This document shows, piece by piece, positions 2,448-61,400 of a stretch of DNA of 64,000 nt (its first letter is position 1; each line of letters starts with the position of its first letter). Origin of the DNA: Scenedesmus sp. PABB004 (lineage: Eukaryota); contig JABVCE010000014.1 in NCBI GenBank assembly GCA_014905635.1, positions 434,001 to 498,000 of the forward strand, given 5' to 3'. Under the pieces are notes generated by a model that was given only the letters and a program-made list of their open reading frames with translations, did no database searches and had not been told where the DNA came from. The position numbers were made by a program, and so were the translations under genes.

Positions 2448-5400
2448 CGCGGCGGAGGCGCGCGCGGCGGCCGAGGCGAACAACGCGCTGCGCGTGCAGG
2501 CCGACGCGGCGGCCGCGGCGGCGCACGGCCTGCTGTCGCCGGCCATGTCGGCGCCGCCCGGCGTGGCGGGGCTGTCGCCCGTCGTCGCGGCGGCCGCGGC
2601 GGCGGCGGCGGCCAACGGCGCGGCGGCGGCCGCCGCGGCGGCGGGCGTGGTGCCGTCTGCCGCGGCCGCGGCGATGGCGCAGTACCTCGCCGGCATGGTG
2701 CCGCCGGAGCACCTGCCGAGCGGCGACGGCGGCCCCGCGGCCAGCGGCGGCGGCCCGCCGCGCGTCAAGAAGACGGCGAAGCGCACGGGCATGCCGCGCT
2801 GCTTCTCCTCGCGCAACGTCGCGGGTGCGGCGCTCGCGCCACGCGCGCGCTCGCGCCACGCGCGCGCCGCGGCCCACCCGCGCGCCGCGCCTGCCCCGCG
2901 CGTGCCGCGCAGGCCTGTCGTCGCTGGCGGCGCACGGGCAGCACACGGGCAACGGGCACATCAACATCCACTGGCACGCCAACGGCGAGGCGCTGGCGCT
3001 GCACGTGCCGGGCCTCATGCTCGACCTGGGCGGCTCGGACAGCCCGCGCAGCAGCAGCCCCAACACCAGCTCGCCGGGCGCCGCGCCGCCGGCGCCCGCG
3101 CTCGGCGATGGCAGCCACCTGCTCGTGTCGCCGCTGTGCTACACCCAGCAGCAGAAGGCGGCGCTGCTGCAGGCGCAGCAGGCCGCGGCGGGGGGCCTCA
3201 ACCCGCTCGCCGGCGCGGCGGGGCTGGGTGCGCTGATGGCCGGCCTGCCCGGCGGCCTCGCGCCGGCGCAGGGCCAGCCCGGCTCGCCGACGCGGCGCGC
3301 GGCGGCGGCGCGCCTCAACAGCGCCGGCAGCGGCAGCAGCGGCGGCAGGGCCGGCAGCGGCAGCAGCAAGCGCTGCACGCCGGAGCCCGACAGCGACCTC
3401 GCGGCCACGCTGCTCGCGCTGGGCGCCGCCGCCGGCGGGCACACGAGCCCGAGCAGCTCCGGCGGCACCGACGGCGGCGGCGGGGGGCCGTGCGCCTCGC
3501 AGCAGCAGCAGCTGATGGCGGCGTACCTCCGGCAGCAGCAGCAGATGCAGCTCGCCGTCGGCGGCGGGCACGGCCTGCCGCCGGCGGGCGCCGGCGCCGG
3601 CGGCGCCGCCGCGGCGGCGGCGTGCGCGGTGCACGGCGGCTTCGCCTCGCCCAACGCCAGCCCGCGCCCGCTCTCGCGCCTCGGCGCGTCGGCGGCGAGC
3701 AGCAGCGCCGGCGGCTACGGCCCGCCCTGCAGCTGCTCGTGCAGCAGCAGCAGCAGCGGCGCGCCGGCGCCGGGCGGCGGCAGCAGCCGCAGCTCCAGCG
3801 CCAAGCTCAGCCCCTGCTCGCCGGTGGTCAAGGTCATCGCGCAGCACCAGTTTGAATCGCCCATGAAGCGCGTCAACAGCCAGGGCACGCTCGCCGGCGG
3901 CGGCGGCGGCGGCACTGGCGCCGGCGCGGCGCAGCTCGCGCAGGCGCTGTCGGCGCCGCAGGCGCTGCCGGCGGGCGCCGGCGGGCAGCAGGGCCAGCAG
4001 GTGCTCATGGCGGCGGACGTGGACCGCATGCAGCACGTGGCGGCGGCCGCTGCCGCGCGGCGCAGCAGCGCCGCCACGGCCCCGCCCGGCGCGGGGCTGC
4101 AGGTGGAGCTGCCGTCGCCGGGGCTCGGGGCGGGCGGTCGTACGAGGGCGGCGCCTCGGCGGCCAGCCCGGCGGGGCTGACCATGCAGGAGCTGGCCGAG
4201 GTGCTCGCGAGCCCCTCGGGCGCGGTGTCGGGCCTTCTCAACGGGCAGCAGGTGCTGCAGCTGCAGGCGGCGCAGGCGGCCGCGCAGCAGCAGCTCGCGC
4301 TGCAGGCGGCACAGGCGCATGCGGCGGCGGCGGCGGCGGCGCAGCAGCAGCAGCAGCAGCTGCAGCAGCTGCAGCAGCTGCAGCAGCTGCAGCAGCTGCA
4401 GCAGCGGCAGCAGCAGCAGCAGCTGCAGCAGGTCCAAGACTACCTGGCGACGCAGCAGGCGCACGCCCACGCGGCGGCGGCCGCGGCGCACCAGGCCCAG
4501 CAGCCGCCCCCCGTCTGCAGCCCCCATGTGAGCGCGATGCGCCGCCCCGTGATGCGCGCGTGCAGCGCGCCGTCGCTGCTGCACCCGGCGCTGCAGCTGC
4601 AGCTGATGCAGGCGCAGGCGCGCGCGGGCTGGGGAGACGCGGCGGGCAGCTCGCCGCCGGGCGGCAGCCCGACCGCCTCGCTCTCCTCCGGCGGGCCGCC
4701 CGACCTGGCCATGTATGAGCAGGCGGCGGCCGTGGCGGCGCTGCAGGAGCAGGCGCTGCAGGCGCAGTTCGCCCACCAGGCGGCAGCGCACGCGGCGTCG
4801 CCCTTCGCGGGCGCCATGGGCGGCGACGCGGGCGGCGCCGGCCCCGGCAGCCCCGCGGCGGGCGGCGCCGGCGCCGGCGTGCTGCTGCGCGGCGGCAGCG
4901 GCAGCGCGCTCGCGGATCAGCTGCTCGCGCTCGGCGGCGGCGGCGCCAGCGGCGCCGCGACGCCCTACCGCGCGGCCAGCCCCGGCCTGGCGGCGATGCT
5001 CCAGTCGCAGGGCAGCGCGGGGCAGCAGCAGCTGCTCGCGGCCGCGGCGGGCGCCGGCTGGGACGGCGCGCCGCTGCAGCGCGCCGGCTCGGCGGCGGCC
5101 GCCGCGGCGGCGGCGTACGCGGCGGCCGCGGCTGCGGGCGTGCTGGCGGCCAGCGACGGGGGCATGCAGCTCTCCATCAGTGAGGGCGGCATCGTGCGGA
5201 GCGCGAGCCTGATGTCTGAGCTGGGCCCGCTGCAGCCGGTGCCGGAGTCGTCCGCGGCGACGTACGAGCAGCCGCCCGCCGTCATGGGCGGCTGGCCGGC
5301 GGCCACCGCGGCCGCGGCGGCTGCGCAGCAGCAGCAGCAGCAGCAGCAGGAGTACGGCGCGCTGCTGCAGCAGCAGGCGGCGCAGGCGGCGCAGCTGCAG

Positions 5401-47140: not shown

Positions 47141-47163
47141 CCGCCCCCAGGGCGGCCGTTGCG

Positions 47164-47168
47164 TGTAA
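47164..47168 (+). promoter_or_regulatory. TGTAA polyadenylation signal (SKA3)
   Basis: TGTAA lies 24 nt after the SKA3 stop. Confidence 0.6.
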
Positions 47169-47308
47169 AGGGCTCACAGCGCGTTGAGCCGCCGCCGCGC
47201 CCGCTCGCTCGCCGGCGCCTGCCCCTCCTGCCGCCGCCGCTGGCACAGCCGTGGCCCGGGCAGTCCCTGCGCCCTTTTGGCCGTCTCCGCACACCGTTGC
47301 GCGCCGCG

Positions 47309-47560
47309 ATGCGGGTCGACGTGCTGCTCTTTGCCGCCGCGCGCGAGGCGGCGGGCGCGTCCAGCCGCCAGGTGGAGCTGCCCGAGGGCGCCACCACGGC
47401 GGAGCTGCTGGACGCGCTGCTGGCGGAGCACCCGGGCCTGGGGGCGGTGATGGAGGCCTGCGTCTTCGCCGTCAACCAGGAGTACGTCCCCCGCGACGAG
47501 CCGCGCCCGCTGCGCAGCGGCGACGAGGTGGCCATCATACCGCCGCTCTCGGGAGGCTGA
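47309..47560 (+). CDS. MOCS2A: Molybdopterin synthase sulfur-carrier subunit (MoaD/CNX7), intronless
   Basis: MRVDVLLFAAAREAAG...FAVNQEYV...LRSGDEVAIIPPLSGG*, with C-terminal GG. Confidence 0.95.
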   Translation: MRVDVLLFAAAREAAGASSRQVELPEGATTAELLDALLAEHPGLGAVMEACVFAVNQEYVPRDEPRPLRSGDEVAIIPPLSGG

Positions 47561-48037: not shown

Positions 48038-48042
48038 TGTAA
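48038..48042 (+). promoter_or_regulatory. TGTAA polyadenylation signal (MOCS2A)
   Basis: First TGTAA noticed downstream of the MOCS2A stop and upstream of the next ATG. Confidence 0.55.
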
Positions 48043-48267: not shown

Positions 48268-49627
48268 ATGGACCACCCCATGGATGGCGGCTCGGAGGAC
48301 GAAGACTACGAGCTGCAGTTGGCGCTGGCGCTGAGCATGCAGGTCGGGCTGGGCGCGGACGAGCTGGCCCATCTGCTGCTCCCGCGCTCCCCGCCCGCCA
48401 CGCGGCAGAGCACGCGCCTGGGCGGTCGCGGGCCGGCCGATCGCGGGCCCTGGCGCCTGCTGGCGGCCCGCTGCGCAGCGGCGGCGGCCGCCGGCGCTCA
48501 CGATCGGCGCGCCGCGCCGCCGCAGGGCGAGGACGCGTTCGCGCCAGGCGCCGGGGCCCCGCCGCCGCCCGCCCCTGGCGCCGCGCCGGCGGGCAACCAA
48601 CCGAACCAGCAGGACCTCGCCGCCGCGCTCGCGGCGGCGCTCGGCGCGATCGCTGGCGGCGGCGGCGGCGGCAGCGGCGGTGAGCCGGCGCTGCGGGCAG
48701 CGCGCAGCGCGCAGCGGTCGCCGGCGGCGCGCCGGCCCACGCGCCGTGCAGCGCGGCCGCCGGCCGCCGGGCTGCGCAGCGCGCTCGCCGCCGCGCCGCG
48801 CTGCGGCGCGGCTGGCGCCGCACGCGCGCCGCGCGGCGCCCGCGCCAACCGCTGCAACCAACCCGCGCCAACCGCCCCCGCAGACGGCGAGGCGGCGCCG
48901 CCGCCGGAGTTTGAGTTTGACTGGGAGCCCGAGCCGCCGCGCGAGGCGGCGGCGCCGGTCGTGCGCGCTGCGCCGCGCCGGCTGCCGCCCTGGGCGGAGC
49001 AGCTCGCGCTGTGGTGGCAGCCGGGCGCGAGCCCGGAGCTGGGCGGCCTCTCCGCGGCAGGTGGGCGGGCCGCGTGCGCCGGCGGGCGGCGTCCGGCGCG
49101 GCGTGCCTGGCGCACCCCGCAGCGGCTGACCCGGCGCCGGCGCCGCCGCGCAGGCGCGCTTGCGGGCGCGGACGCGCAGCAGCTGCTCGCCAAGCCCGAG
49201 GTCGTCGTGCCGCTGGCGGAGCTGCCCGCGGCGCTGGGCGCGCTGGGGGCGATGCTCAAGGCCACCGTCATCTGCCCCTCCGCCGGCGAGGCCGCGGGCG
49301 GCGCCGCCGCGCCGGGCGTGCTGCGGCTCAGCGCGCTGGTGCCGAGGTGCGCGCTGCTGCGCGGCGCGGCTCGGCGCGGCTCGGCGCGGCGCGCGGCGCG
49401 GCCGCCTCGCCGGGCCCCGCTGGGCGGCCGGCCCCGCCCCATGCACCGTGCTGCGCCTGCGCCCGCAGCGGCTCGGCCAGCGCGACGGTCAAGGCGTCTG
49501 ACTGCGACCTGCTGCTGGGCACCTGGCTCGCGCGCGCCGCGACGACCGCGGGCGCCGGCGGCCAGCTGCAGCTGCTGCACCTCGCGTTCAGTCGCATGCC
49601 CGCGCCGACCGCCGCTGACGGTGCGAC

Positions 49628-49676
<49 letters not shown>

Positions 49677-51805
49677 GCGACCCGCCGTGAGGGCGCCGCG
49701 CGCCCACGCCTGTCCCCTCCCCCTTCCACACCCGGGCCGCTGCGCGCAGGCGACACGGCGCGGCGCGTCGCGCTGCTGCTCGGGCTGCGCCTCGCGGCGC
49801 GGGGCGTCAAGGCGCTGGAGGATGACGACGATGACCTCTTCTATGACACCGGGCGCACCACCACCGAGCTGCTCGCCGGCCTGGTGCGCAGCACGGCGGC
49901 GCCCGCCCGCCGCTCGCGCGCCGGCCCGCGCTGGCCCGCGCCGGCCGCGGCCGACGCGCCGCCGCGCCGCGCCGCCGCCGCCCGCCGCCGCGTCCCAGGC
50001 CTCGTCGAGCGCGCCGCTGTCGGCGCAGTTTGTGTCGGCGATGCTCTGCAGCTGCGCCACGCCCGGCGCCGCGGGCGCGTGGGCCAAGGCGCTGGCGGGC
50101 GTGCTGCGGGGCTTTGGGACCTACAAGCTCACCGGCGGCGTGACTGAGCTGGAGCCGCTCATGCTGTCGCTCGACCGCGTCACCGCAGACCCCATCCTGC
50201 TGCGCCAGCTGGTGCGCGCGGCGCGGCCGCGGCGCGGCGGCGCGCGGCCCGCCGCCGGCGCCGCCGCTGCGGGGGCTGATGCCGCCGTGCCGCGCCGGCC
50301 GCCGCTCCGCCGCGGCGACGCAGGCCGCGCAGCTGGCGGGCGAGCTGCTCGCGCTGGCGCCGGCGCGCGGCGGCGCTGCCGCGGTGAGCGCCGCCGCGCA
50401 GGCGCAGGCCAAGGGCGGCGCGCTCGCGCCGCTGCTGTGCGTGTGCAGCGCGGTCGACGCGCTGTCCGTGCTGCGCGCGGCGGGCGCGGGGCGGTTCTTC
50501 GCGGACGGCGGCGACGGCGGCGCCGGCGGCGGCGGCGGCGCGCGCGTGTCGGCCGCGGCGGCGGGCATGTCGCCCGCGGCGGGCCTCTTCACCTGCCTGC
50601 GCGGGTATCCGAGCAACCAGGGCGAGGTGGAGGGCGCGCGGCGGCTGCTGGAGGCGGTGCTCGGGCGCATTGCCGACGCGGCGCACCAGGTGTTCAAGCG
50701 CCTCGCCGGCCTCAAGGTGCGGCGCCCGCGCGGCCGCGCGCGGGCGCGCGCGGCAGGGCAGCGAGGGAGGGAGGGCGCGTGCGGGGCCGATGGCTCCCGG
50801 CGCGGGGGGTGTGGGCTGACGCCGGCGGCGCCCGCGCGCGCGCGCGCCGCAGTGCCCGGGGCTCCCGGCGAGCGCGGGGCGCGAGGTGCTGCTCGCGTGG
50901 CTGGCGGGCGTGGCGGAGGCCAACGAAGTGCGCTGCGTCGGCGGGGATTACGGCGCGTTGCGGCACCTCATGGGTGCGCCGCGCCGGCGGCGGCGGCGCT
51001 GCGGCGCCCGGCCGCGCGCCGCGCGCAGCCCTGCGCGCCTCGCCTGCTGCGGCACACCGCGCCGCCCGCGCCCGCGCCCCGCCGCCCGCCGCCGCCGCGG
51101 GCAGGCGCGCCCGACGGCCCGATGGTCAACCTCACCGCGTCGGTGCTGCGCCTCACGCGGCCCTTTGTCGCGGGCTACCTCAGCCAGTCGCCCAAGTTTG
51201 CCGACCTCTTTGCGCGCCACCTCTCACCCACGTACTACGCCACCCACGCGCGCCGCCTCGGCGCGGCCGCGACGTCGGAGCCGACGCTCGCGGGGCAGCG
51301 CGGCGCGGCGAGCGCGGCGGCGCCGGCGGCGGCGGCCGGCGCGGCCGCCGACGCGGGGCTGGCGCTCGCGGCCGACCCGGCCGCTGCTGCCGCGTCGGCG
51401 AGCTTCGTGGCAGAGGCCTTCTTCATTGCCCAGCGCTACCTGCACGTCGGCCTGCTGCCCGCGGTGCACCGGTGCGTGCACGCGCGCGCGCGCGCGCCGC
51501 GGCTCGCCGTGCCCACCTCCTTGGCAGCACGCAGTGCGCTTGATCTGGTCATCCGCATTGCCACAATCCAACAACGCTTTGCCCTGTCTGTCTGCCTGCC
51601 CGGTCCGCCCCAGGTTCAACAAGCTCTACCAGCGCCTCTGGGAGGCCGCCGCCGACGCGGAGGGCGGCGGCGGGGGCCGCTTCGCGCCGCCGACGGAGCT
51701 CGTGCTCGTCGCCGACTGCAGCACCGCGCAGCTGCTGCAGCCCGACCTCTGCGCCGACGCGGTGCAGGTGCGGTGCTGGCACACGGCGGCGGCGGCGGCG
51801 GCGGC

Positions 51806-51836
<31 letters not shown>

Positions 51837-54800
51837 GCGGCGGCATGCGTGCGCAATGCGGGCCCTCGCCCCGCTGCTGCCGCCGCCGCCGCCGCACCCA
51901 CGCCCCGCCGCTGCCGCCGCCGGCGCCTCCGCCGCCGCGCAGTTTGCAGTGCTTGAGATCATGTGGCTGGCCGACCTGCTCACCACGCACCAGGCGCAGC
52001 AGCAGGGGCAGCAGCAGGGGCAGCAGCAGGCGGCGCAGGCGGCGCAGGCGGCGCAGGCGGCGCAGGCGCCCGCGGGCGTGCTCGCCGCGGTGCCCGAGTC
52101 GGTGCTCGCCGACGCGGCGAGCTGGCTGACCTTTGTCATTCAGCAGCGCCAGAGCGAGCAGCTCGCCGCGGTGCCCATCGGTGCGCACACAGCGCCGCGC
52201 CCACTGCCGCGCCGCGCCGGCCGCCGCGCCGCCGCGCCGCGCCGTGCTGCGCCCGCCGCCGCTGGCCGCTGGCCCGGCCCGACGACACCGACACCGCCGG
52301 CCTGGCCCACGGCGCCGCCCTGCGCCGCCCGCCGCGCCCGCGGCAGGCATGCTCATGTGCTCGCTGGTGACGCTGCTGGAGCATCCCAGCGAGGTGGGCG
52401 CGCAGGGCGGCAGCGAGGCCGGCCGCCGCGCTGCCGCAGGGCATGCAGCGCCGCGCCGCGCCGCGCCGCGCAGCGCCGCGCCGCGCCGCGCTGCACCGCG
52501 CCGCGCCGCGCTGCGCCGACGCCCCGCCGCCGCGGCGGGGGCGCGTGCAGGTGCGCAGCCTGCTGGTGGTGGCCAAGCTGGTGCAGCTGCTGCTGGTGAT
52601 GCTGTCGCCGCAGGTGGGTCGTGAGGGGCGTGCCAGACGGACCGGGCCAAGGGAGGGGTGGCAAGAGCCGGGTCCGTCCCGGTCACTTTGCACTGTCGGC
52701 GCGGCCCGCTCGCCGCCGCACGCCCGGGCGCCGGCCTCGCGCAAGAGCCCGGCCGCGGTCGCGGCGCGCGCTGGTTGTTGGGTGGTGCCTCCTGCGCCGC
52801 CCCAATCACCGAGCGCGCAACGCGACCGCCGCCCACCGCGCCGCCGCGCGCCCCGGCGCTGGCCTCGCGCGGGAGCACGGCCGCGGCCGCGGCGCGCGCT
52901 GGTTCATCGGCGCTGCGTCCTGCGCCGCGCCAATCACCCAGCGCGCGCCGCGGCGCCGCGGCCCACTGCGCCGCCGCGCGCTGGCCTCGCGCAAGAGCAC
53001 GGCCGCGGCCGTGGTGCGCGCTCGTTGACTGGCGCCGCGTCCTGCGCCGCGCCAATCACTGAGCGCGCACCGCGGCCCACCGCGCCGCGCGCCCCGGTGC
53101 CAGCCTCGCGCAAGAGCCCGGCCGCGGTCGCGGCGCGCGCTCGTTGTTTGGCGCGGGCTCCTGCGCCGCCCCACTCACCGAGCGCGCAACGCGACCGCGG
53201 CCCACCGCGCCGCCGCGCGCCTCGCCGCCGGCCTCGCGCGGGAGCACGGCCGCGGCCGCGGCGCGCGCTGGTTCATCGGCGCTGCGTCCTGCGCCGCGCC
53301 AATCACCCAGCGCGCGCCGCGGCTGCGGCCCGGTGTGGCGCTCTCGCCGCCCCTTGCGCACAGCGGACGCAGCGCGGCGTGCTGCGTGCCCCCCCCCCCC
53401 ACCGCCGCCGCTGCTGCCGTCGCGGCCTTGCGCCGCCCCACCGCAGGTCAACCTGGAGCGCCGCACGCGCGGCGCGCTCGGGCGCAGCAACCTCAGCCCT
53501 GGTGCGCGCCCCCTCGCGCGCCGCCGCCGCCGCCGCGCGCCGCCGCCGATGCCTCCCTCACCCCGCCGCGCCCCGCCGCCCCGCTCGCGCGCCGCCGCGC
53601 CCCCCAGGCGAGTCGGCGCTCGTCGCGAGCGTGCTGGGCACGTCGGCGGCGCAGCAGCAGCTCGTGCCGGCGCTGATGCGCGTGTACGGCGCGGCAGATT
53701 TTGTGGTCGGCCTCGACGTCGACCGCGACGACTACGATAAGTTCACGGTGCGCTGGCCTGTTCCTTTGTTGCTGGTTGTTGTGTGAGCTTGCTGTGTGTT
53801 GTGTTTGTGTGTTGCTTGTGTGTTCAGCACATAAACACACAAGCGCTGGCGTCCAACGCTTGTGTGTCGTTGCGCTCTGTGTCTCGTGACTGAACGGTCT
53901 GGCCGGGGGTCGCGCCCCCCGCCGCCGCCGGCGCCGCCGCCGCGCGGCCGGCCCCCGGACCCGACCCGCGCCCGGCGCGCCCGCGCCCGCGCCCGCGCGC
54001 CGTGCGCAGATGCGGCACCAGATCGACCAGCTGCTCGAGGAGCTCTGGCGCGACGAGCGCTGCCGCGCGTGCATCCGCGCGCAGGCCGCCGCGGCGGCGG
54101 CCGCGCCCGGGGGCGACGCGTCGGGCAGCGTGTTTGGCGGCTTTGTGTCCGCCGTGCTCAACGACTTGATGTACCTGTTCAAGGACTCCCTCGAGCGCCT
54201 GGCAGACATCCGCACGATCGAAGAGTCCAAGGCCGACGCGGCGGTGCGGCGGCGGCGGCGGCGGCGCGCGCGCGGCTTTGTGCGGGTCCGTTGCCTTGTT
54301 CCTTGTTTTTATTCTTGTGAAGGAACACAGCGCCAATCATCGCACACACGCAACGTTGTATGTGTGGGATGGTTTGTGATGGGCACGATCATAACACAAA
54401 CGCAATTGTCTGCGTTATGATTATGCCCATCACAAGCCATCCCACCACACACGCAACGTTGTGTGTGTGTGATGACTGGCGCAGGCGGTCTGCGCGCGGC
54501 GGGCGGGCTCGGGCGCGCGGCGCGGCCCGACACGAGCGCGCGCCGCGCGCCGCCTCGCGCCGCCGCCGCCGCGGTTTGCAGGCGTGGGCGCGCCTGAGCG
54601 AGGAGGCGCGGGCGGACAAGGAGACGTTTTACCGCAGCCAGCAGCGCACCGCGGGCGGCTTCATGTCGCTCGCGCGCACCACGCTCGACCTGCTCATCAC
54701 GCTCACGGCCGACGCTGAAATCGTGAGGGCGCGCAGGGCGCTCGCAGGGCTCAGCGGCGGCGGCGCGGCGCAGCACACAGCGCAAGGACGCGGGGCGCGC

Positions 54801-56109
54801 GCCGCGCGCGGGGCGCCGCCGCGGCTGCCGTGCGTCGACCAAGCGCGCTGCCGCCGCCGCCGCCGCTGCGGCGCACGCTCCTGGTGCAGGCGCGCACGTT
54901 CCTGGTGCAGCCGCTGCTCGGGCGCACCGCGTTTGCGGTGCTGCACTTCCTGGAGCTGCTGGTCGGGCCGCGCTGCCAGGTGCCCGGGGCCGCCGCGCGC
55001 CGCCGCGCTGCCGCGCCAGCATGGCCCCTGACCCGGAATCCCTAAACCGCGGCGGCGCAGTCGCTGGCGGTGGCCAACCCGGGGCGGTACCACTTTGACA
55101 AGGGCGCGCTGCTGCTGGGCATGGTCTCGCTCGCGGGCCAGCTCGGCCGGCACCCAGAGTTCACGCAGGCGCGCGCCGCCGCCGCCGCCGCGTGCGCCTG
55201 GGAGCTCCCGCGCCGCGCGCGCCGCGCCCGCGCAGCCCCCTCCTCGACCCCGGCGCCGCCGCCGCCGCCGCGCCCGCGCCCCTCCTAAACCCCAAACCCC
55301 AAACCCAGGCGCTGGCCGAGGAGCCCGACTACGAGGACGGCGTGCTCTCCGCCGCGTCGGCGCTGCTCAACGCTGCCCACAACTACGGCGCCGCCGACGG
55401 CGTCGACGCGCTGCGCGCCGCGATCGCGGCGACGCCGCTGCACACCGCCAAGCGCCAGCGCCGCGCCGGCGGCGCGCCGGGCGCCGACGGCGGCGCGGCC
55501 GGCGGCGCCGCCGGCGGCGACGGCGCGCCCGGCGGCGCGGCGCCGGCCGGCGACGCGCTCGAGGCGGAGGTGTCGTCTGCGGTGGCGCGCTGGGCGGCCG
55601 CGGTCGGCCCGGGGCCGGCGAGCTACGACGACGCGGAGGCGGGCTACGCCGCGGCGCTGGGGCCGCTCGCGCTGGGCGTGTTTGACGCGACCGCGCCGGG
55701 CGCGTACAACAGTCAGTTCACCGCGCTCGCCGCGCAGCCCGAGGGTGGGTTGGGTTGGTCGCCCCGTGCGGTCCGCGCGCGCGGCCGGCGCGGCGGGGCT
55801 GGGCCAGGCGGCCCTGCGCGCGCGCTGTGCGGCCTGCGCACGCGGGGGCGAGGCGCGCCCAACGCACCCCCCGCAAAACGCTCACCCCGCAGGCGACGCG
55901 AGCCAGAAGCTGCGCCGGCTGGGCCGCGAGCTGCGCGACCTGCGCGGCAAGACGCGCCTGCCCATCGCCGCCGCGGCGGCGTGCTTCGTGCGGCAGGACG
56001 CGGAGCGCCCCGACAAGGCGCGGCGCCGCGGCGCCCGCGCTCGCTGCGCCCACGCCCTCCCTCGCGCCCTCGCCTCGCCTCGCCTCGCCTCGCCTCGCCT
56101 TGTCTCGCC

Positions 56110-56141
<32 letters not shown>

Positions 56142-57845
56142 ACCACTCACACCACCCACACACACCCACACCCACACACACCCACCCCCACACCCACCCA
56201 CACCCACGCGCGCAGGTGCGCTGCGTGATCAGCGGCCCCGCCGGCACGCCGTACGAGGGCGGCCTGTTTGTCTTCGACGCCCTCTTCCCGCCCGGCTACC
56301 CCAACGTGCCGCCGCTGCTCGCGCTCGACACGACCGGCGGCGGGCGCGCGCGGTTCAACCCCAACCTCTACGCCGGTGGGTGGTTCAGGGTTGGGGGGGG
56401 GGCGTGTGTGTATGGGGTGTGGGTGTGGGTGTGTGTCTGGTGTGGGCTTGGGTGTGGGTGTGTCTGGGCGTGGGCGTGGGCGTGCGGGCGAGGGTGCGGA
56501 GCAGTCGGTTTGAGGGGCTTGCAAGGGTGTCGAAACGGGGCTGGCAGGGGCGGCTCGTTGAGGAGGACGGGGGCGGTGAGGCGAGCCGTCCGCCGCGACG
56601 ACGCTCACGCCGCGCCGCCGCCGCCGCCGCGCCGCAGACGGCAAGGTCTGCCTCTCGCTGCTCGGCACGTGGCACGGCGGCGACGAGGCGTCCAAGGTGC
56701 GCGCGGGGGCCGAGGCGCCGCCGCGCCGTCACGCCGGCCGGCTGGGCCGTCCGTCCCCGCACCGCGCGGCCTCCCGCTCTCGCCTGCGCTGTCCCTGTCC
56801 AACCCCTGGACCGCCCCTGGCCCGCCGCCGCCTCCCGCCCGCGTGGTGCACGCGTGCGCGCAGTGGAACCCGAGCAGCAGCAGCCTCTTCCAGATCCTGC
56901 TGAGCATCCAGGGCATGATCTTTGTCGAGGTGCGCGCGCGCGCGTGGGGCTGGGTGGGCGTGTGTGTGGATGGGGAGGAGGCAGGAGGAGCAGTGCGGCC
57001 AGCAGGGCCCCTGTACCCTCACCCCAACCCTGAGCCCCGTGTCGTCAACCCTTTGAACCGCCTACAACCCTTAACCCTAAACCCCAACCGCCTGACCCCC
57101 GCTTCCAAAACCCCAGGACCCCTACTTCAACGAGCCCAACGTCGAGCTCATGCGCGGCACGACCGAGGGCAACCTCACGAGCATGAAGTGAGCCCGGGCG
57201 CTGCCAGCTGCTGCCGCGACGGCCGCACGCCAGACGCGCGCGCACCAGACGCGCGCAGTCGCGCGGCCGCGCGCGCGCGCGCGCGCGCGCGGCGCGACGG
57301 CACGGCCGCGGGTGGCGGGGCGTGCCAGCGCGCCGCGCCCGCGCGCCGCCACGCCGCTGCGTCCCGCCGCCGCCGCCGCCGCCGCCGCCGCGTCATGCCG
57401 CCGCCGCTGCGCCGCCAGGTACAACGCGGAGCTGCGGCTGTCGACGCTGCGCTGGGCGGTGCTCGCGCTGCTGCGCAAGCCGCCGCCGGGGCTGGAGGAC
57501 CTGGTCGCCGCGCACTTCAAGTGAGGGCGGCGGCGCGGGGTTGCGAATCGGGCTCGCGACTCTGGCCGGCGCGCGCCGGCGGCCGCCGCCGCGCCGCACG
57601 CTCGCCGTCGGGGCCGGTCGCCGCGCCGCGCGCTCACGCTCCACGCGCACGCCCCGCGCGCGGCGCGCAGGGCGCTGCGCGGCACGCTCGCGGCGCGCGC
57701 GGGGCGCTGGCTGTGCGAGGCGGCGCGGTCCGACCCGAGCGGCACCACGTACCGCCGCCTGGTGGAGGTCATGGACGAGCTGGCCCCCGCCTCGCCGCGC
57801 TGTGAGGCCACGGGCGAGCTGGCCCCCCGCCTCGCCGCGCTGTGA
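48268..57845 (+). CDS. UIM + Ufd2/UBE4 core + BIRC6-type UBC (E2) fusion protein with no U-box; more than 20 exons
   Basis: UIM: EDEDYELQLALALSMQ. Ufd2 core: [178 protein letters not shown]. Confidence 0.88.
52733..53322. repeat. Intronic minisatellite, about 5 copies of a ~120-128 bp unit
   Basis: The unit GCCTCGCGC(AA/GG)GAGC.CGGCCGCGG.CG...CCTGCGCCGC.CCAATCAC..AGCGCGC starts at about 52733, 52861, 52983, 53102 and 53230. Confidence 0.85.
54330..54482. repeat. Intronic foldback inverted repeat (~75 bp arms, almost no loop); pre-miRNA- or MITE-like
   Basis: The left arm GCGCCAATCATCGCACACACGCAACGTTG...GGGATGGTTTGTGATGGGCACGATCATAAC pairs with the right arm GTTATGATTATGCCCATCACAAGCCATCCC...CAACGTTGTGTGTGTGTGATGACTGGCGC. 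Confidence 0.85.
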
Positions 57846-57854
57846 GGCCACGGG
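57776..57854 (+). repeat. 39/40 bp tandem duplication spanning the stop codon of the Ufd2-UBC gene
   Basis: CGAGCTGG-C5/C6-GCCTCGCCGCGCTGTGAGGCCACGGG occurs twice. Confidence 0.9.
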
Positions 57855-58444
57855 CGACGGCGCCGCTCCCGCGCCGCGCCGCGGCGTGCCGAGGCGGGGC
57901 CCGGGCAGCGAGCGGCGGGCGCAGTGCTTACAGGAGGTTCGGAGCGGCGGCGCGCGCTGCGGCATGCGCGCACGCGCGCGGTCGCCGTCTGCGTTTGGTG
58001 CGACGGTGCGTTCGTGATGAGAGAGGAGTGCAGGGCACGGGGCAGTGCCGCCGCTGCGGCGCGGGCGGTGCCGACCGTGCAAGTTGACGAGAAGCCCCAA
58101 TGACAGTACTAGTGCCCAACGGCCGCCGCGCTGTGGAGTTTGTCGGGCGCCGCAAATGCAGGCTGCAGCACCATTCAGTGGCAGGCGCGCCGGCGGCGGC
58201 GGCCCGACGCCCGGCCGTCGGGCGCGCGCGCCCCGCGGCGCGCGCTAGAGCAGTTCCTGTGCCCCCCCACGCACGCGAGCCTCCCCCACGCAGCGCACAG
58301 CGCACAGCACCAGCACCAGAGATGTCGGCCTCGCATACAGCGCGTGTTTGAGCAGCGCGCGACGTCCCGTCCCCGTCCCCCGCCCGCGCGCGGTCGCCAT
58401 CGCATTTGCGCCCCCCCCCCCTCCCGTCCGGCCGCCGCCCCGCA

Positions 58445-61400
58445 TCAGCGCGCCGCGGCGAGCATCGCCTCCACCGTCGCGACGAGCGTGGCCGCGTCGG
58501 GGCGGCCGCCCGGCGCGGTCGCCCAGCAGGACGCGAGGAGGGCTTGGAAGCTTGCCGGCATGCTCGGCGGGACCGGGGGCCGCCGGTCATGCAGCACCAC
58601 CTCCGAGTAGAACGAGGCGTAGTGCAGGTCCCTGGGGCGGCGGCAGGCGCAGGCGGGCGGCGCGGGCGCAGCAGCGGGCGGGTCGGGTCGGCGCGGCGGG
58701 CGGGCGGGGCGGGCGCGGGCGGGCGGCGCGGCGGGCGCGCGCCCTCTCACCGCCACGCGACCTCGCCCGTGAACAGCTCCCACGCCATGATGCCTGCGGG
58801 CGCCGGGGCGGCGGCGAGGCGGCGAGGCGGCGGGGCGCCGTGAGCTCGTGCGCGGGCGCGCGGGCGCGCGGGCGCGCGCCGCGGCGCTGCCCCCGCCCCT
58901 CTCGTCCCCACCGCCACCCCGCGCGCGTGGACTGACCGAACGCAAAGATGTCGCCCTTGCTGCTGATGCGGCCCTCCGTGAGCAGCTCGGGCGGCGTGTG
59001 GCTCAGCGTGCCTGGCGGCGCGACGCGCGGCGCGGTGCGGCCGCGCGGCGGTCAGCCGCGAGGCGCCCGCGGCGGCGCGTCGCGGCGCGGAGCCGCGGCG
59101 CCGCGGAGCGGCACCTTTGGTCTGTGTCGTGCGGTGCGTCTTGTGCTCTTGCAGGACGCGGGCGAGGCCAAAGTCAGTGATTTTTGCCACGCGGCCGTGC
59201 GGCGCGCGCGCGTCGGAGCAGACCATCACGTTGCGCGAGTCTGCGGCGGGAGGCGGCGGCGGCAGCGGCGCGCGTGAGCGCCCGCCCTGGGGGCCGCCGC
59301 CGCAAGACGACGGCACGCGGCGGCGCGGCGCGGAGCGCGCGCGCGCACGCGGCCTCTCTCGCGCCGCCGCGGCTCACTCAGGTCGGCGTGCACCACGCTG
59401 TGCGCGTGGAGCGCCTGCAGCCCGCGCGCGACGTCGCGCAGCAGCGCGAGCAGCTGCGGCATCAGCGCGGCCGCGGTGGCCGCCCCCGACGGCCCGTCAT
59501 GCGCGGCGCCGAGCTGCGCCCGCAGCGACGGGACGACGCGGCCGAGCGGGCCGCAGTCGCCCAGCTCCATCACCAGGTGGCTCTCGGAGCGCTGGCTGGG
59601 GCCCTCGGTCAGCGCCCAGCTGCTGCCCGGGGTGTCGCACGAGTCGCCCGCGCCGCCGCCGCCGCCGCCGCTGCCCGGCACGGCGCCCGCCTTGGCGGCC
59701 TGTGCCGCGGCGACCGACGACGCGGACGACGGCTGGCGCGGCGATGCGCCCAACGGCTGGCGCGGCGATGCGCCCGACGGCTGCTCGCCGCCCGCGCCGC
59801 CGCTGCTGCCCGCGCCGGCCGTGCCCGGCGCGCCCGCCGGGCCGTGGCGGACCATCGCCGAGTCGGAGCCGCCGCCGGCGGCGCCGCCGCCGGCCGCGGC
59901 GGCCGCCGCGCTGCGCAGCTCGAGGCTGCGCCGCACGCGCGCGCGCCGCGCCGCCCCGGGCGTGCCGGCGAGGGCGCCGCCGGCGCCGGCGCCGGCGTCG
60001 CCCGCGCGCAGCGGCGGCGGCTCGTGGAAGGTGTGGGTGCTACAGACATAGTGGTAGGCCCGGATCAGGTTGGCGTGGCGCAGGGCCATCATGATCTTGA
60101 CCTCCGACTCCACCGCGGGCGTGGCGCTCGCGTCGTGCTCAATCACCTGCACACGGCGCGCCGGGCGGAGGAGGAAGAGCATGCGCCTGGCTCGGCACGC
60201 GCGACCGGCTCGGCGCCACGCACGCCGGGCGGGTTTGCGGCGCGCGCGCGCGCGCGCGCGCACCTTGACCGCGCAGGGCCGGCCGCCCCAGGTCGCCGAC
60301 CAGACGCGCCCGAACGAGCCCTGCCCCAGCAGCTCGCCTGCGGACCGCGGCGGCAGCGGCGGCGGCGGTCGCAGCACGCTGGGCGCGTGCGTCTTGCAGC
60401 GTGCACACTGCCCCTGGCCCGTGAGCCGCGGCGCACCAAACTCAATCTCGGCGTTTGCCGCGTCGGCAAACTCGGGCGCCGTGATCGTCGCCGTCACGGT
60501 CGTCTCGCCGCCACACGGCAGCAGGAGCCCCGGCGCGCCGCCTGGCGCGCCGCCGGCCGGCCGGCCCCCGCTCTCGACGTCGACCAGCTTGCCGCTCGCG
60601 CCGCCCGTGCTGGGCAGGGGCGCCTTGCCATCCTCAGGGTGCTCGTCTCCCGCAGCGGAGCGGCGCCTCCGCCGCCGGCGCACCCACAGCGCGGCGACGG
60701 CGGCCGTCGCGAGCACTGCGGCGGCGGACGCGGCCGCGCGGCGGTGAGCGACGGCGGCGGCGGCGCCCCCGCGCCCGGCGGGGCCCCGCGCGCCGCGCCG
60801 CGCCGCGCCGCGCCGCGCCGCGCCGGCGCGCACCCCCGACCACCACGATCGGCGCAACGATGGCGGCGACCGGCGCGCCGCTGCGCGCGGCGCCGGCGCT
60901 GGGCGGCTGGCTGCGGCCGCCCATCACGCGCTCTATGTGCTCGATGATGCACACCTGCGCCGGCGCGGCGCGGCGCGGCGAGGGCAGCAAGTGAGCCGTG
61001 GCTCGCGGCCGTCTGGCAACCGGCTCGGGCGCGCAAGCGGGGGCGCCGCCGGGCGCCGCCGCGCCTCGGCGCTCTTGATGGCGAGGCAGTCGGGGCTGAG
61101 CGTGTCCTTGCACAGGCGGTGCATGTCGCGCGCCGACTGCGGCGGCGCGACGCGACGCGCGGCGACGCGCGGCTCGCGCGGGGCGCCGCCGCAGCGACGG
61201 AGCGGCGCGCGGCAAGCGCGACGCAGCAAGCGGCGGCGCGGCGCGGCGGGCCGCACCAGCGCGTAGCCGCCCTCGGGGTTGCGGTCCTCCTGCACACTGG
61301 GCGGGATGTCGGTCGTGTAGTCAATTGTTGTCAGCGTGCGGGGAAACACGCGGCCCTGCGGCGCGCGCGCACGCCGCGGCGGCGGCGGTGGGTGGGCCGC

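Follow-up and report, generated by a model that had tools for sequence, protein, structure and literature searches.

The locus described here raises the question of whether one gene can carry both the scaffold of a Ufd2-type ubiquitin ligase and an E2 enzyme of its own, and of what such a protein would do. It occupies positions 48268-57845 of the + strand in a 64,000-nucleotide stretch of DNA from Scenedesmus sp. PABB004 (contig JABVCE010000014.1, positions 434,001 to 498,000), referred to below as the window. An earlier note on this DNA had described the locus as a chimera: a UIM, followed by a Ufd2 core and, where the U-box should come, a BIRC6-type UBC domain. All of these elements (the UIM-like motif, the Ufd2 core and the UBC domain with its NPN motif and its Cys codon, TGC, at 56649-56651) were located in the window as described. 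It is nearly certain from the comparisons below that the gene belongs to a conserved eukaryotic family of proteins that join a Ufd2 core to a BIRC6-type UBC module and lack a U-box.

The predicted protein has a UIM-like motif at its N-terminus; a complete Ufd2P_core, a Gly/Ala spacer and the UBC module follow in that order. Pfam searches of stop-free + strand frames recovered collinear pieces of Ufd2P_core: profile positions 94-186 at 51107-51481, 403-476 at 54001-54249, 472-519 at 54573-54716 and, weakly, 548-586 at 55055-55171. UQ_con is matched at 56216-56374 (E 1e-9 when single exons are scanned; approximately 56210-56380 in the first scan). Within the UBC module, codon positions place the NPN motif at 56357-56365 (+) and the catalytic Cys at 56649-56651 (+), the latter falling in the aligned column of BIRC6 Cys4666. 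An ungapped alignment with BIRC6 also identifies a five-residue insertion loop, GGGRA (56336-56350, +), equivalent to BIRC6 residues 4649-4653; the loop is followed by R-F and then by NPN. No U-box (PF04564) was matched at E ≤ 0.1 or E ≤ 10 in any + strand frame between 54321 and 58248, and Gly or Ala accounts for 34 of the 60 spacer residues, so that the earlier reading of a Gly/Ala linker in place of the U-box is upheld. BIR domains were likewise without a Pfam match, both in the window's frames and in 49 homologues.

The assignment of the UBC module to the BIRC6 type is borne out by its Myrmecia counterpart, P0015: residues 1026-1275 of that protein match the BIRC6 UBC domain with 247 bits (E 3e-72, approximately 40% identity), as against 125 bits for UBE2O, approximately 103 for UBE2Z and approximately 50 for ordinary E2s. 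In the window itself, 52 residues of one exon align with no gap to the UBC domain of human BIRC6 (E 9e-16). These same 52 residues correspond to 47 positions of the Pfam profile, so the five-residue BIRC6 loop is kept in length.

The window is approximately 80% G+C along its whole length; stop-free frames are therefore frequent and prove nothing alone, and the case for a gene is built on splice signals, composition by codon position and comparison across species. Whether the two halves form one gene can be judged at exon 17, here termed the link exon (55309-55744, +), which is delimited by a CAG acceptor and a GTGGGT donor and supported by GC periodicity and tblastn. It encodes the last Ufd2 core helices (approximately 55309-55430), the Gly/Ala spacer (approximately 55429-55608) and the start of the UBC N-terminal extension (approximately 55600-55744). 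Its G+C fractions by codon position are 0.84/0.65/0.97, and the third position reaches 0.98 even in the Gly/Ala part. The intron upstream of it uses a GC donor or, alternatively, is a 44-nt GT-AG intron; the frame with the core is kept either way. In tblastn comparisons, Volvox P0067 residues 1052-1202 match 55306-55746, the entire link exon, and residues 1-132 match 48268-48657, while Myrmecia P0015 residues 1000-1063 match 55522-55746 and residues 364-1257 lie collinearly on 50546-57521 (364-427 on 50546-50737); such collinearity argues that this is not a chance open frame. The stretch of P0015 that can be aligned with BIRC6 begins at residue 1026 (BIRC6 4524), 31 residues past the end of the Pfam core at 995, and the link exon contains the window's counterpart of this stretch together with the conserved (P/A)DY motif that closes the core. 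When aligned with 14 homologues, the spliced model runs continuously from core through spacer and UBC module to a common C-terminal ...LAAL. With portions of the two modules in one exon, the Ufd2 core and the UBC module belong to a single predicted gene rather than to neighbours; the earlier claim of one gene thus stands, the same order being found in the gene models and single transcripts of other species. The identity of the gene is secure. The link exon used as a query for longer homologous proteins gave no match, a result of little weight for an exon that is largely of low complexity.

The window's gene has many relatives. A phmmer search of 1.84 billion representative sequences with the exon at 54010-54246 returned 82 matches, mostly short fragments; 11 of the 16 long matches carry both Ufd2P_core and UQ_con, and none of the 16 has a U-box. 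Named proteins among the long matches include Myrmecia bisecta KAK9823993.1, Volvox carteri XP_002948310.1 and Sanguina aurantia. With P0015 residues 700-1301 as query, PF10408 and PF00179 occur together in 98 of the best 120 matches (of 487); with residues 850-1436 of the amphioxus protein P0133 they do so in 103 of the best 120 (of 854), and PF04564 is absent from all 240 matches listed. Both domains are found in green algae (Trebouxia, Bryopsis, Botryococcus, Elliptochloris, Nannochloris, Scenedesmus, Haematococcus, Ulva, Pleodorina, Volvox and Chlamydomonas, CHLRE_12g510300v5), animals (Branchiostoma, Haliotis, Littorina, Patella, Lingula, Owenia, Nematostella, Actinia, Porites, Oculina and the sponge Dysidea), chytrid fungi (Rhizophlyctis and Gaertneriomyces), the haptophyte Calcidiscus and the stramenopiles Aureococcus and Chrysophaeum. 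No vertebrate, arthropod, land-plant or Dikarya protein with both domains appears among the named matches listed (the best 120 of 487 and of 854).

When 33 further members were scanned afresh with Pfam, every one matched both the core and UQ_con (UQ_con is weak and cut off in P0193), and at E ≤ 0.1 none matched a U-box; the homologues cover core profile positions 1-627. Five of these sequences (P0168, P0185, P0186, P0188 and P0191) are open reading frames (ORFs) from de novo transcriptomes (Trinity/MMETSP) with both domains in one ORF, which indicates that a single mRNA encodes both modules in other species. In 48 aligned members, 35-110 residues (median 44) separate the core from the first conserved Tyr in the UBC extension. 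This spacer is shorter than 70 residues in 43 of them, which leaves too little room for a U-box, and the catalytic Cys is kept in 47. Two candidates for a lost U-box were rejected. A hidden or degenerate copy in the spacer is ruled out by the lack of a Pfam match, the Gly/Ala-rich composition, the shortness of most family spacers and the predicted structure of the homologue P0012, which has only helices there. The 'PDYED' sequence at the start of the link exon is not a U-box remnant, as it aligns with the core-terminal (P/A)DY motif in 14 of 14 homologues. An ESM Atlas search with the P0015 core, from which PF00179 clusters were excluded, returned generic Ufd2P_core clusters only.

The same architecture therefore exists in many other chlorophytes, including Volvox and Chlamydomonas (UBC21), as the earlier note had suggested might be checked. 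Its implication of a one-off chimera of the Scenedesmus genome does not hold: the family was already in public databases, where its members are annotated as 'hypothetical' or 'UBC core domain-containing', and judged by its sequences it is old, widespread and apparently unstudied rather than unique to Scenedesmus sp. PABB004. In a FastTree phylogeny (45 rows, a quick method, with the canonical Ufd2 outgroup left out), green algae form one clade (13 named, support 100) and animals another (11 named, support 100). The window's gene lies in the green-algal clade as sister to Sanguina plus the Volvocales (support 99), and in sequence it is most similar to Elliptochloris (48% identity over 888 columns). 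This pattern fits vertical descent of an old gene. Sanguina aurantia has two close copies of the fusion gene, P0034 and P0116, with end branches of 0.025 and 0.043.

Excerpts from published surveys bear on whether the fusion replaces canonical Ufd2. A Chlamydomonas expression table (PMC7838096) has Cre09.g398350 as 'Ufd2, PF10408', separately from UBC21 as 'Ubc21, PF00179'. UBE4A and UBE4B are reported in most animals, sponges included, by a survey of animal U-box ligases whose excerpted text takes every Ufd2 relative to be core plus U-box (PMC3087547). With a separate PF10408 gene in Chlamydomonas and UBE4A/UBE4B in animals, the fusion looks like an extra paralogue. A core-only ufd-2 is recorded in the excerpt of a snail survey, where it is attributed to annotation (PMC6548493).

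The UIM-like motif of the window's protein, an acidic run followed by an L..A..S core, is encoded at 48298-48342 (+; Pfam UIM, exon 1 residues 11-25). Of 15 green-algal homologues, 12 start with an acidic stretch and an A..S motif, and this motif is visibly doubled in Myrmecia, Trebouxia and Bryopsis; Pfam identifies a UIM at the N-terminus of homologues P0103, P0106, P0110 and P0125. Within the fusion family, an N-terminal UIM is common in green-algal members only. Weak N-terminal EF-hand matches occur in P0155, P0160, P0165 and P0167 (three cnidarians and one mollusc, a chiton), where green algae have the UIM, and hint at calcium-linked control in these animal members. Putative ubiquitin-binding motifs thus recur across the family without being one of its constant features.

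A fragment of a single homologue, P0012 (569 residues, with the final third of the core plus the UBC module), was modelled with AlphaFold2 from a 48-sequence alignment. Its predicted local distance difference test score is 91.0 and its predicted template modelling score (pTM) is 0.91; nothing but helices and five low-confidence residues (270-274) lies between the two modules. In Foldseek comparisons, the C-terminal half of the model retrieves the BIRC6 UBC domain first (3CEG, TM-score 0.87 on target, 39-40% identity) and then UBE2O, and the N-terminal half retrieves yeast Ufd2 (3M63, 2QIZ and 9KHS, the last being Ufd2/Ubc4-Ub/K29-diUb). As the pTM is so high for a two-module chain, the model suggests that the E2 packs in a fixed arrangement against the scaffold's end.

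Ufd2 is the founding E4 enzyme, and the U-box of canonical Ufd2 serves only to recruit an E2; a covalent link to an E2 would take over that role. Reasoning from its parts, we consider it somewhat probable that the window's protein acts as an E2-E4 enzyme in one chain, lengthening or branching ubiquitin chains with no U-box involved; the earlier note had likewise envisaged a self-contained chain-elongating enzyme that would bind its substrate through the UIM. E1 would load ubiquitin onto the Cys encoded at 56649-56651. The Ufd2 core would grip a ubiquitylated substrate or a ubiquitin chain, probably with the help of the N-terminal UIM in green algae, and the tethered E2 would hand its own ubiquitin directly to the held chain, resulting in extension or branching. 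Neither U-box nor RING would be necessary, as is the case for the E3-independent enzymes BIRC6 and UBE2O.

Several points weigh against this proposal. The UIM of the window has an E value of 0.029 and 14.6 bits (PF02809), under the 21-bit Pfam cut-off; the motif is missing from the Chlamydomonas gene model and from one of Sanguina, and in three protist members Pfam places a UIM at the C-terminus instead. Chain binding by the Ufd2 core is assumed. The high pTM belongs to one model of a single homologue, built from 48 sequences. Furthermore, BIRC6 and UBE2O mainly modify substrates directly instead of extending chains, and the fused enzyme could do so too.

This last point leads to the main rival, in which the protein would modify substrates directly in the manner of UBE2O. 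The core would serve as a docking platform for clients, Cdc48 or shuttle factors, and the UBC module would mono- or multi-mono-ubiquitylate what is docked, much as UBE2O does with orphan proteins. The nearest solved relatives of the module, BIRC6 and UBE2O, act in this way according to the excerpted text of PMC12818219, and lineage-specific N-termini (the algal UIM; the weak EF-hand in cnidarians and a mollusc) would fit the recognition of clients or signals. We nevertheless regard such a substrate ligase as rather unlikely, since the E2 is joined to the scaffold of an E4 that extends chains and since ubiquitin-binding UIMs recur at either end of the protein across the family. Alternatively, the protein could be a conventional E2 on an adaptor, still in need of a RING or U-box E3 in trans and merely localised by its Ufd2 core. 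That Chlamydomonas retains the separate PF10408 gene Cre09.g398350 (PMC7838096, excerpt) would suit this arrangement; it is quite improbable, however, given that BIRC6-type UBC modules are described as E3-independent (excerpts of PMC12818219 and PMC13623948) and that the tight predicted packing of UBC on core (pTM 0.91) suggests an integrated enzyme.

The two remaining explanations deny that there is a working fusion at all. A decayed or non-catalytic copy, whether pseudogene or pseudo-enzyme, might be suspected from the 40-nt tandem repeat over the stop codon, the 13-residue insertion near the end of the protein and the long, low-complexity spacer, but is very unlikely in view of 24 stop-free exons, each with 0.91-1.00 G+C at third codon positions (GC3), and of a Cys, an NPN and a flanking motif that agree with those of the family. 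An annotation artefact, in which a U-box-less Ufd2-like gene was merged with an adjacent BIRC6-like E2 gene, would find openings in the cheapness of open frames in 80% G+C DNA and in the GC-AG intron needed at the junction upstream of the link exon. We consider it extremely unlikely: the end of the core and the UBC extension share one link-exon frame with coding GC periodicity, the same order recurs in approximately 100 clusters from many phyla, single assembled transcripts included, and no + strand TGTAA lies between 48043 and the end of the window.

If the single-chain E2-E4 proposal is followed further, the family may represent a third and ancient class of E3-independent ubiquitin enzyme, alongside BIRC6 and UBE2O, in which a Ufd2 scaffold positions the acceptor chain for an attached BIRC6-type E2; we put this forward tentatively, as an idea that falls a little short of being probable. 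It would have arisen in an early eukaryote, given its presence in green algae, animals, chytrid fungi, haptophytes and stramenopiles, and later losses in vertebrates, arthropods, yeasts and land plants would explain why it was never studied. The absence of the family from the named vertebrate, insect, yeast and land-plant matches listed may itself be the reason for this neglect. The design has been visible in databases for years and has apparently never been described.

No description of a Ufd2-core/UBC fusion was found in literature searches that reached few subscription journals, and likewise no characterised protein that combines a UIM, a Ufd2 core and a BIRC6-type E2, in agreement with the earlier note. 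Excerpts of the papers that mention UBC21 contain it only in E2 lists, an expression table, a co-expression module and a gamete cilia proteome: Cre12.g510300 is in a list of ubiquitin E2s (PMC7522501), UBC21 was found in the cilia of Chlamydomonas plus gametes (PMC9561859), and, though weakly expressed, it is the one E2 that belongs to the 'protein degradation' co-expression modules of Chlamydomonas (PMC8226298). Structural work is actively addressing how the Ufd2 scaffold places an acceptor ubiquitin with respect to the E2, and entries solved in 2025 for Ufd2 with Ubc4-Ub and K29-linked chains are among the Foldseek matches. If the proposal is true, a natural E2-on-scaffold enzyme would add a class to the very short E3-independent list and offer a simple one-chain system for studies of chain extension and branching. 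The presence of the family in the tractable organisms Chlamydomonas and Nematostella makes the idea directly testable.

The provisional gene model has 24 exons on the + strand with an ATG at 48268 and a stop codon at 57843-57845, giving a coding sequence of 4893 nt and a protein of 1630 residues. There are no internal stops. GC3 is 0.95 overall and 0.91-1.00 exon by exon, as against 0.26-0.71 at second positions. Donor/acceptor pairs that keep the frame were enumerated at the exon junctions, with a single clear solution at most of them. From 50546 to the stop at 57845 the model comprises 20 exons and 19 introns, of which 15 are GT-AG and four GC-AG; every acceptor is CAG. The GC-AG introns have an identical GCGCG(C/G) donor (at 51484, 54729, 55169 and 56018), which follows (A/C)G each time in these four of the 19 better-supported introns. 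GC-AG introns make up approximately 1% of eukaryotic introns; the excess seen here may be a trait of an 80% G+C genome, or these four junctions may be uncertain.

Five provisional exons were added to form the upstream part of the model. Exon 1 (48268-49346) encodes the UIM and a poorly conserved, low-complexity N-terminal region; it is defined by GC periodicity in frame 1 and a gag|GTGCGC donor at 49347, and may hide introns. Exons 2-5 (49469-49620, 49750-49883, 49999-50211 and 50324-50716), placed by GC periodicity and GT-AG pairs, continue through the N-terminal region into the first part of the Ufd2 core; exon 5 has an ambiguous acceptor. Splice sites, a continuous frame and homology define exons 6-16, which encode the Ufd2 core (50853-50973, 51105-51483, 51614-51767, 51943-52180, 52347-52393, 52551-52620, 53608-53747, 54010-54243, 54582-54728, 54890-54979 and 55061-55168). 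Downstream of the link exon, exons 18-24 encode the UBC module (55893-56017, 56216-56375, 56638-56696, 56864-56929, 57117-57187, 57419-57520 and 57671-57845), with six GT-AG junctions and one GC-AG junction. All of these exons are on the + strand.

Repeats were detected at several places in the gene. The longest intron (52621-53607, +; 987 nt, GTGAGG donor, CAG acceptor) contains a tandem repeat of approximately 122-128 nt at 52700-53331 (4-5 copies, 79% matches; Tandem Repeats Finder). The same program identified a 40-nt repeat at 57765-57857 (2.3 copies, 92% matches) that extends across the stop codon. Compared with each of the 14 homologues in the alignment, the protein also carries 13 inserted residues directly ahead of the conserved ...LAAL terminus; taken together, these features suggest that the 3' end of the coding sequence underwent a recent duplication. 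Introns in the UBC part contain CA-rich and GT/GGGTGT microsatellites at 56100-56210 and 56404-56484, the lowest-G+C stretches of the locus.

The upstream neighbour is an ORF for a small protein of the ThiS/MoaD family (47141-47560, +; Pfam ThiS, 5e-20). TGTAA is the green-algal poly(A) signal; on the + strand it occurs at 48038-48042, 478 nt past the end of this ORF and 226 nt ahead of the Ufd2-UBC ATG, and not again between 48043 and the end of the window, hence nowhere after the Ufd2-UBC stop. On the - strand there is a TGTAA at 57928-57932, 83 nt beyond that stop codon. Kinase-like ORFs at 58445-59373 (-), with a weak PK_Tyr_Ser-Thr match (E 0.0035), converge on the Ufd2-UBC gene.

Among known systems, the N-terminal part of the protein is closest to Ufd2, UBE4A and UBE4B (yeast Ufd2 structures 2QIZ, 3M62, 3M63 and 9KHS), with which it shares a full Ufd2P_core and the same helix order; yeast Ufd2 matches P0015 residues 631-971 with an E value of 4e-29. 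It differs from them in having a UBC module instead of a U-box, so that the E2 would be present in cis rather than recruited. Canonical Ufd2/UBE4 ligases bind Cdc48/p97 and the UBL domains of Rad23/Dsk2, and they lengthen chains on oligo-ubiquitylated substrates. The window's core is also divergent: its core exon retrieved the fusion type in 11 of 16 long matches scanned and a U-box in 0 of 16.

With BIRC6/BRUCE (3CEG, 8ATM and 9QGW) the UBC module shares the N-terminal extension, the C-terminal helices, NPN instead of HPN, the five-residue loop and the catalytic Cys. In contrast to BIRC6, the window's protein has neither a BIR domain nor a giant scaffold (1630 residues versus approximately 4860). 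In human BIRC6 the active site is Cys4666, Tyr4711 contacts E1 and its mutation strongly lowers charging, and the loop at 4649-4653 clashes with UBA1 and helps specificity for UBA6 (PMC13623948, excerpt); counted along the alignment, the numbering of 8ATU_A agrees with these residue numbers. The position of Tyr4711 is occupied by Val in the window and Myrmecia, by Ser in the Volvocales and by Tyr in the animal fusion proteins. A dependence on UBA6 was considered on the basis of the kept loop and not adopted: the title of entry 9QGG pairs Drosophila UBA1 with Drosophila BIRC6, which argues that the insertion loop alone does not fix the E1.

UBE2O resembles the window's protein in being a big single chain with a C-terminal UBC domain of the same subfamily, and in its case action is E3-independent; in the excerpted text of PMC12818219, BIRC6 and UBE2O are stated to be the sole two E2s that act without an E3. 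It differs in its weaker UBC match (125 versus 247 bits) and in its N-terminal substrate-binding regions, which are unrelated to the Ufd2 core. The closest likeness is to the uncharacterised proteins with Ufd2P_core and UQ_con, namely Chlamydomonas Cre12.g510300 ('UBC21'), Volvox VOLCADRAFT_116740, Myrmecia KAK9823993.1, Nematostella LOC5513359 and Branchiostoma LOC109473492. The window's protein has a longer low-complexity N-terminus, a longer spacer and the 13-residue insertion near its end; domain order, junction and C-terminal end are all shared with these relatives.

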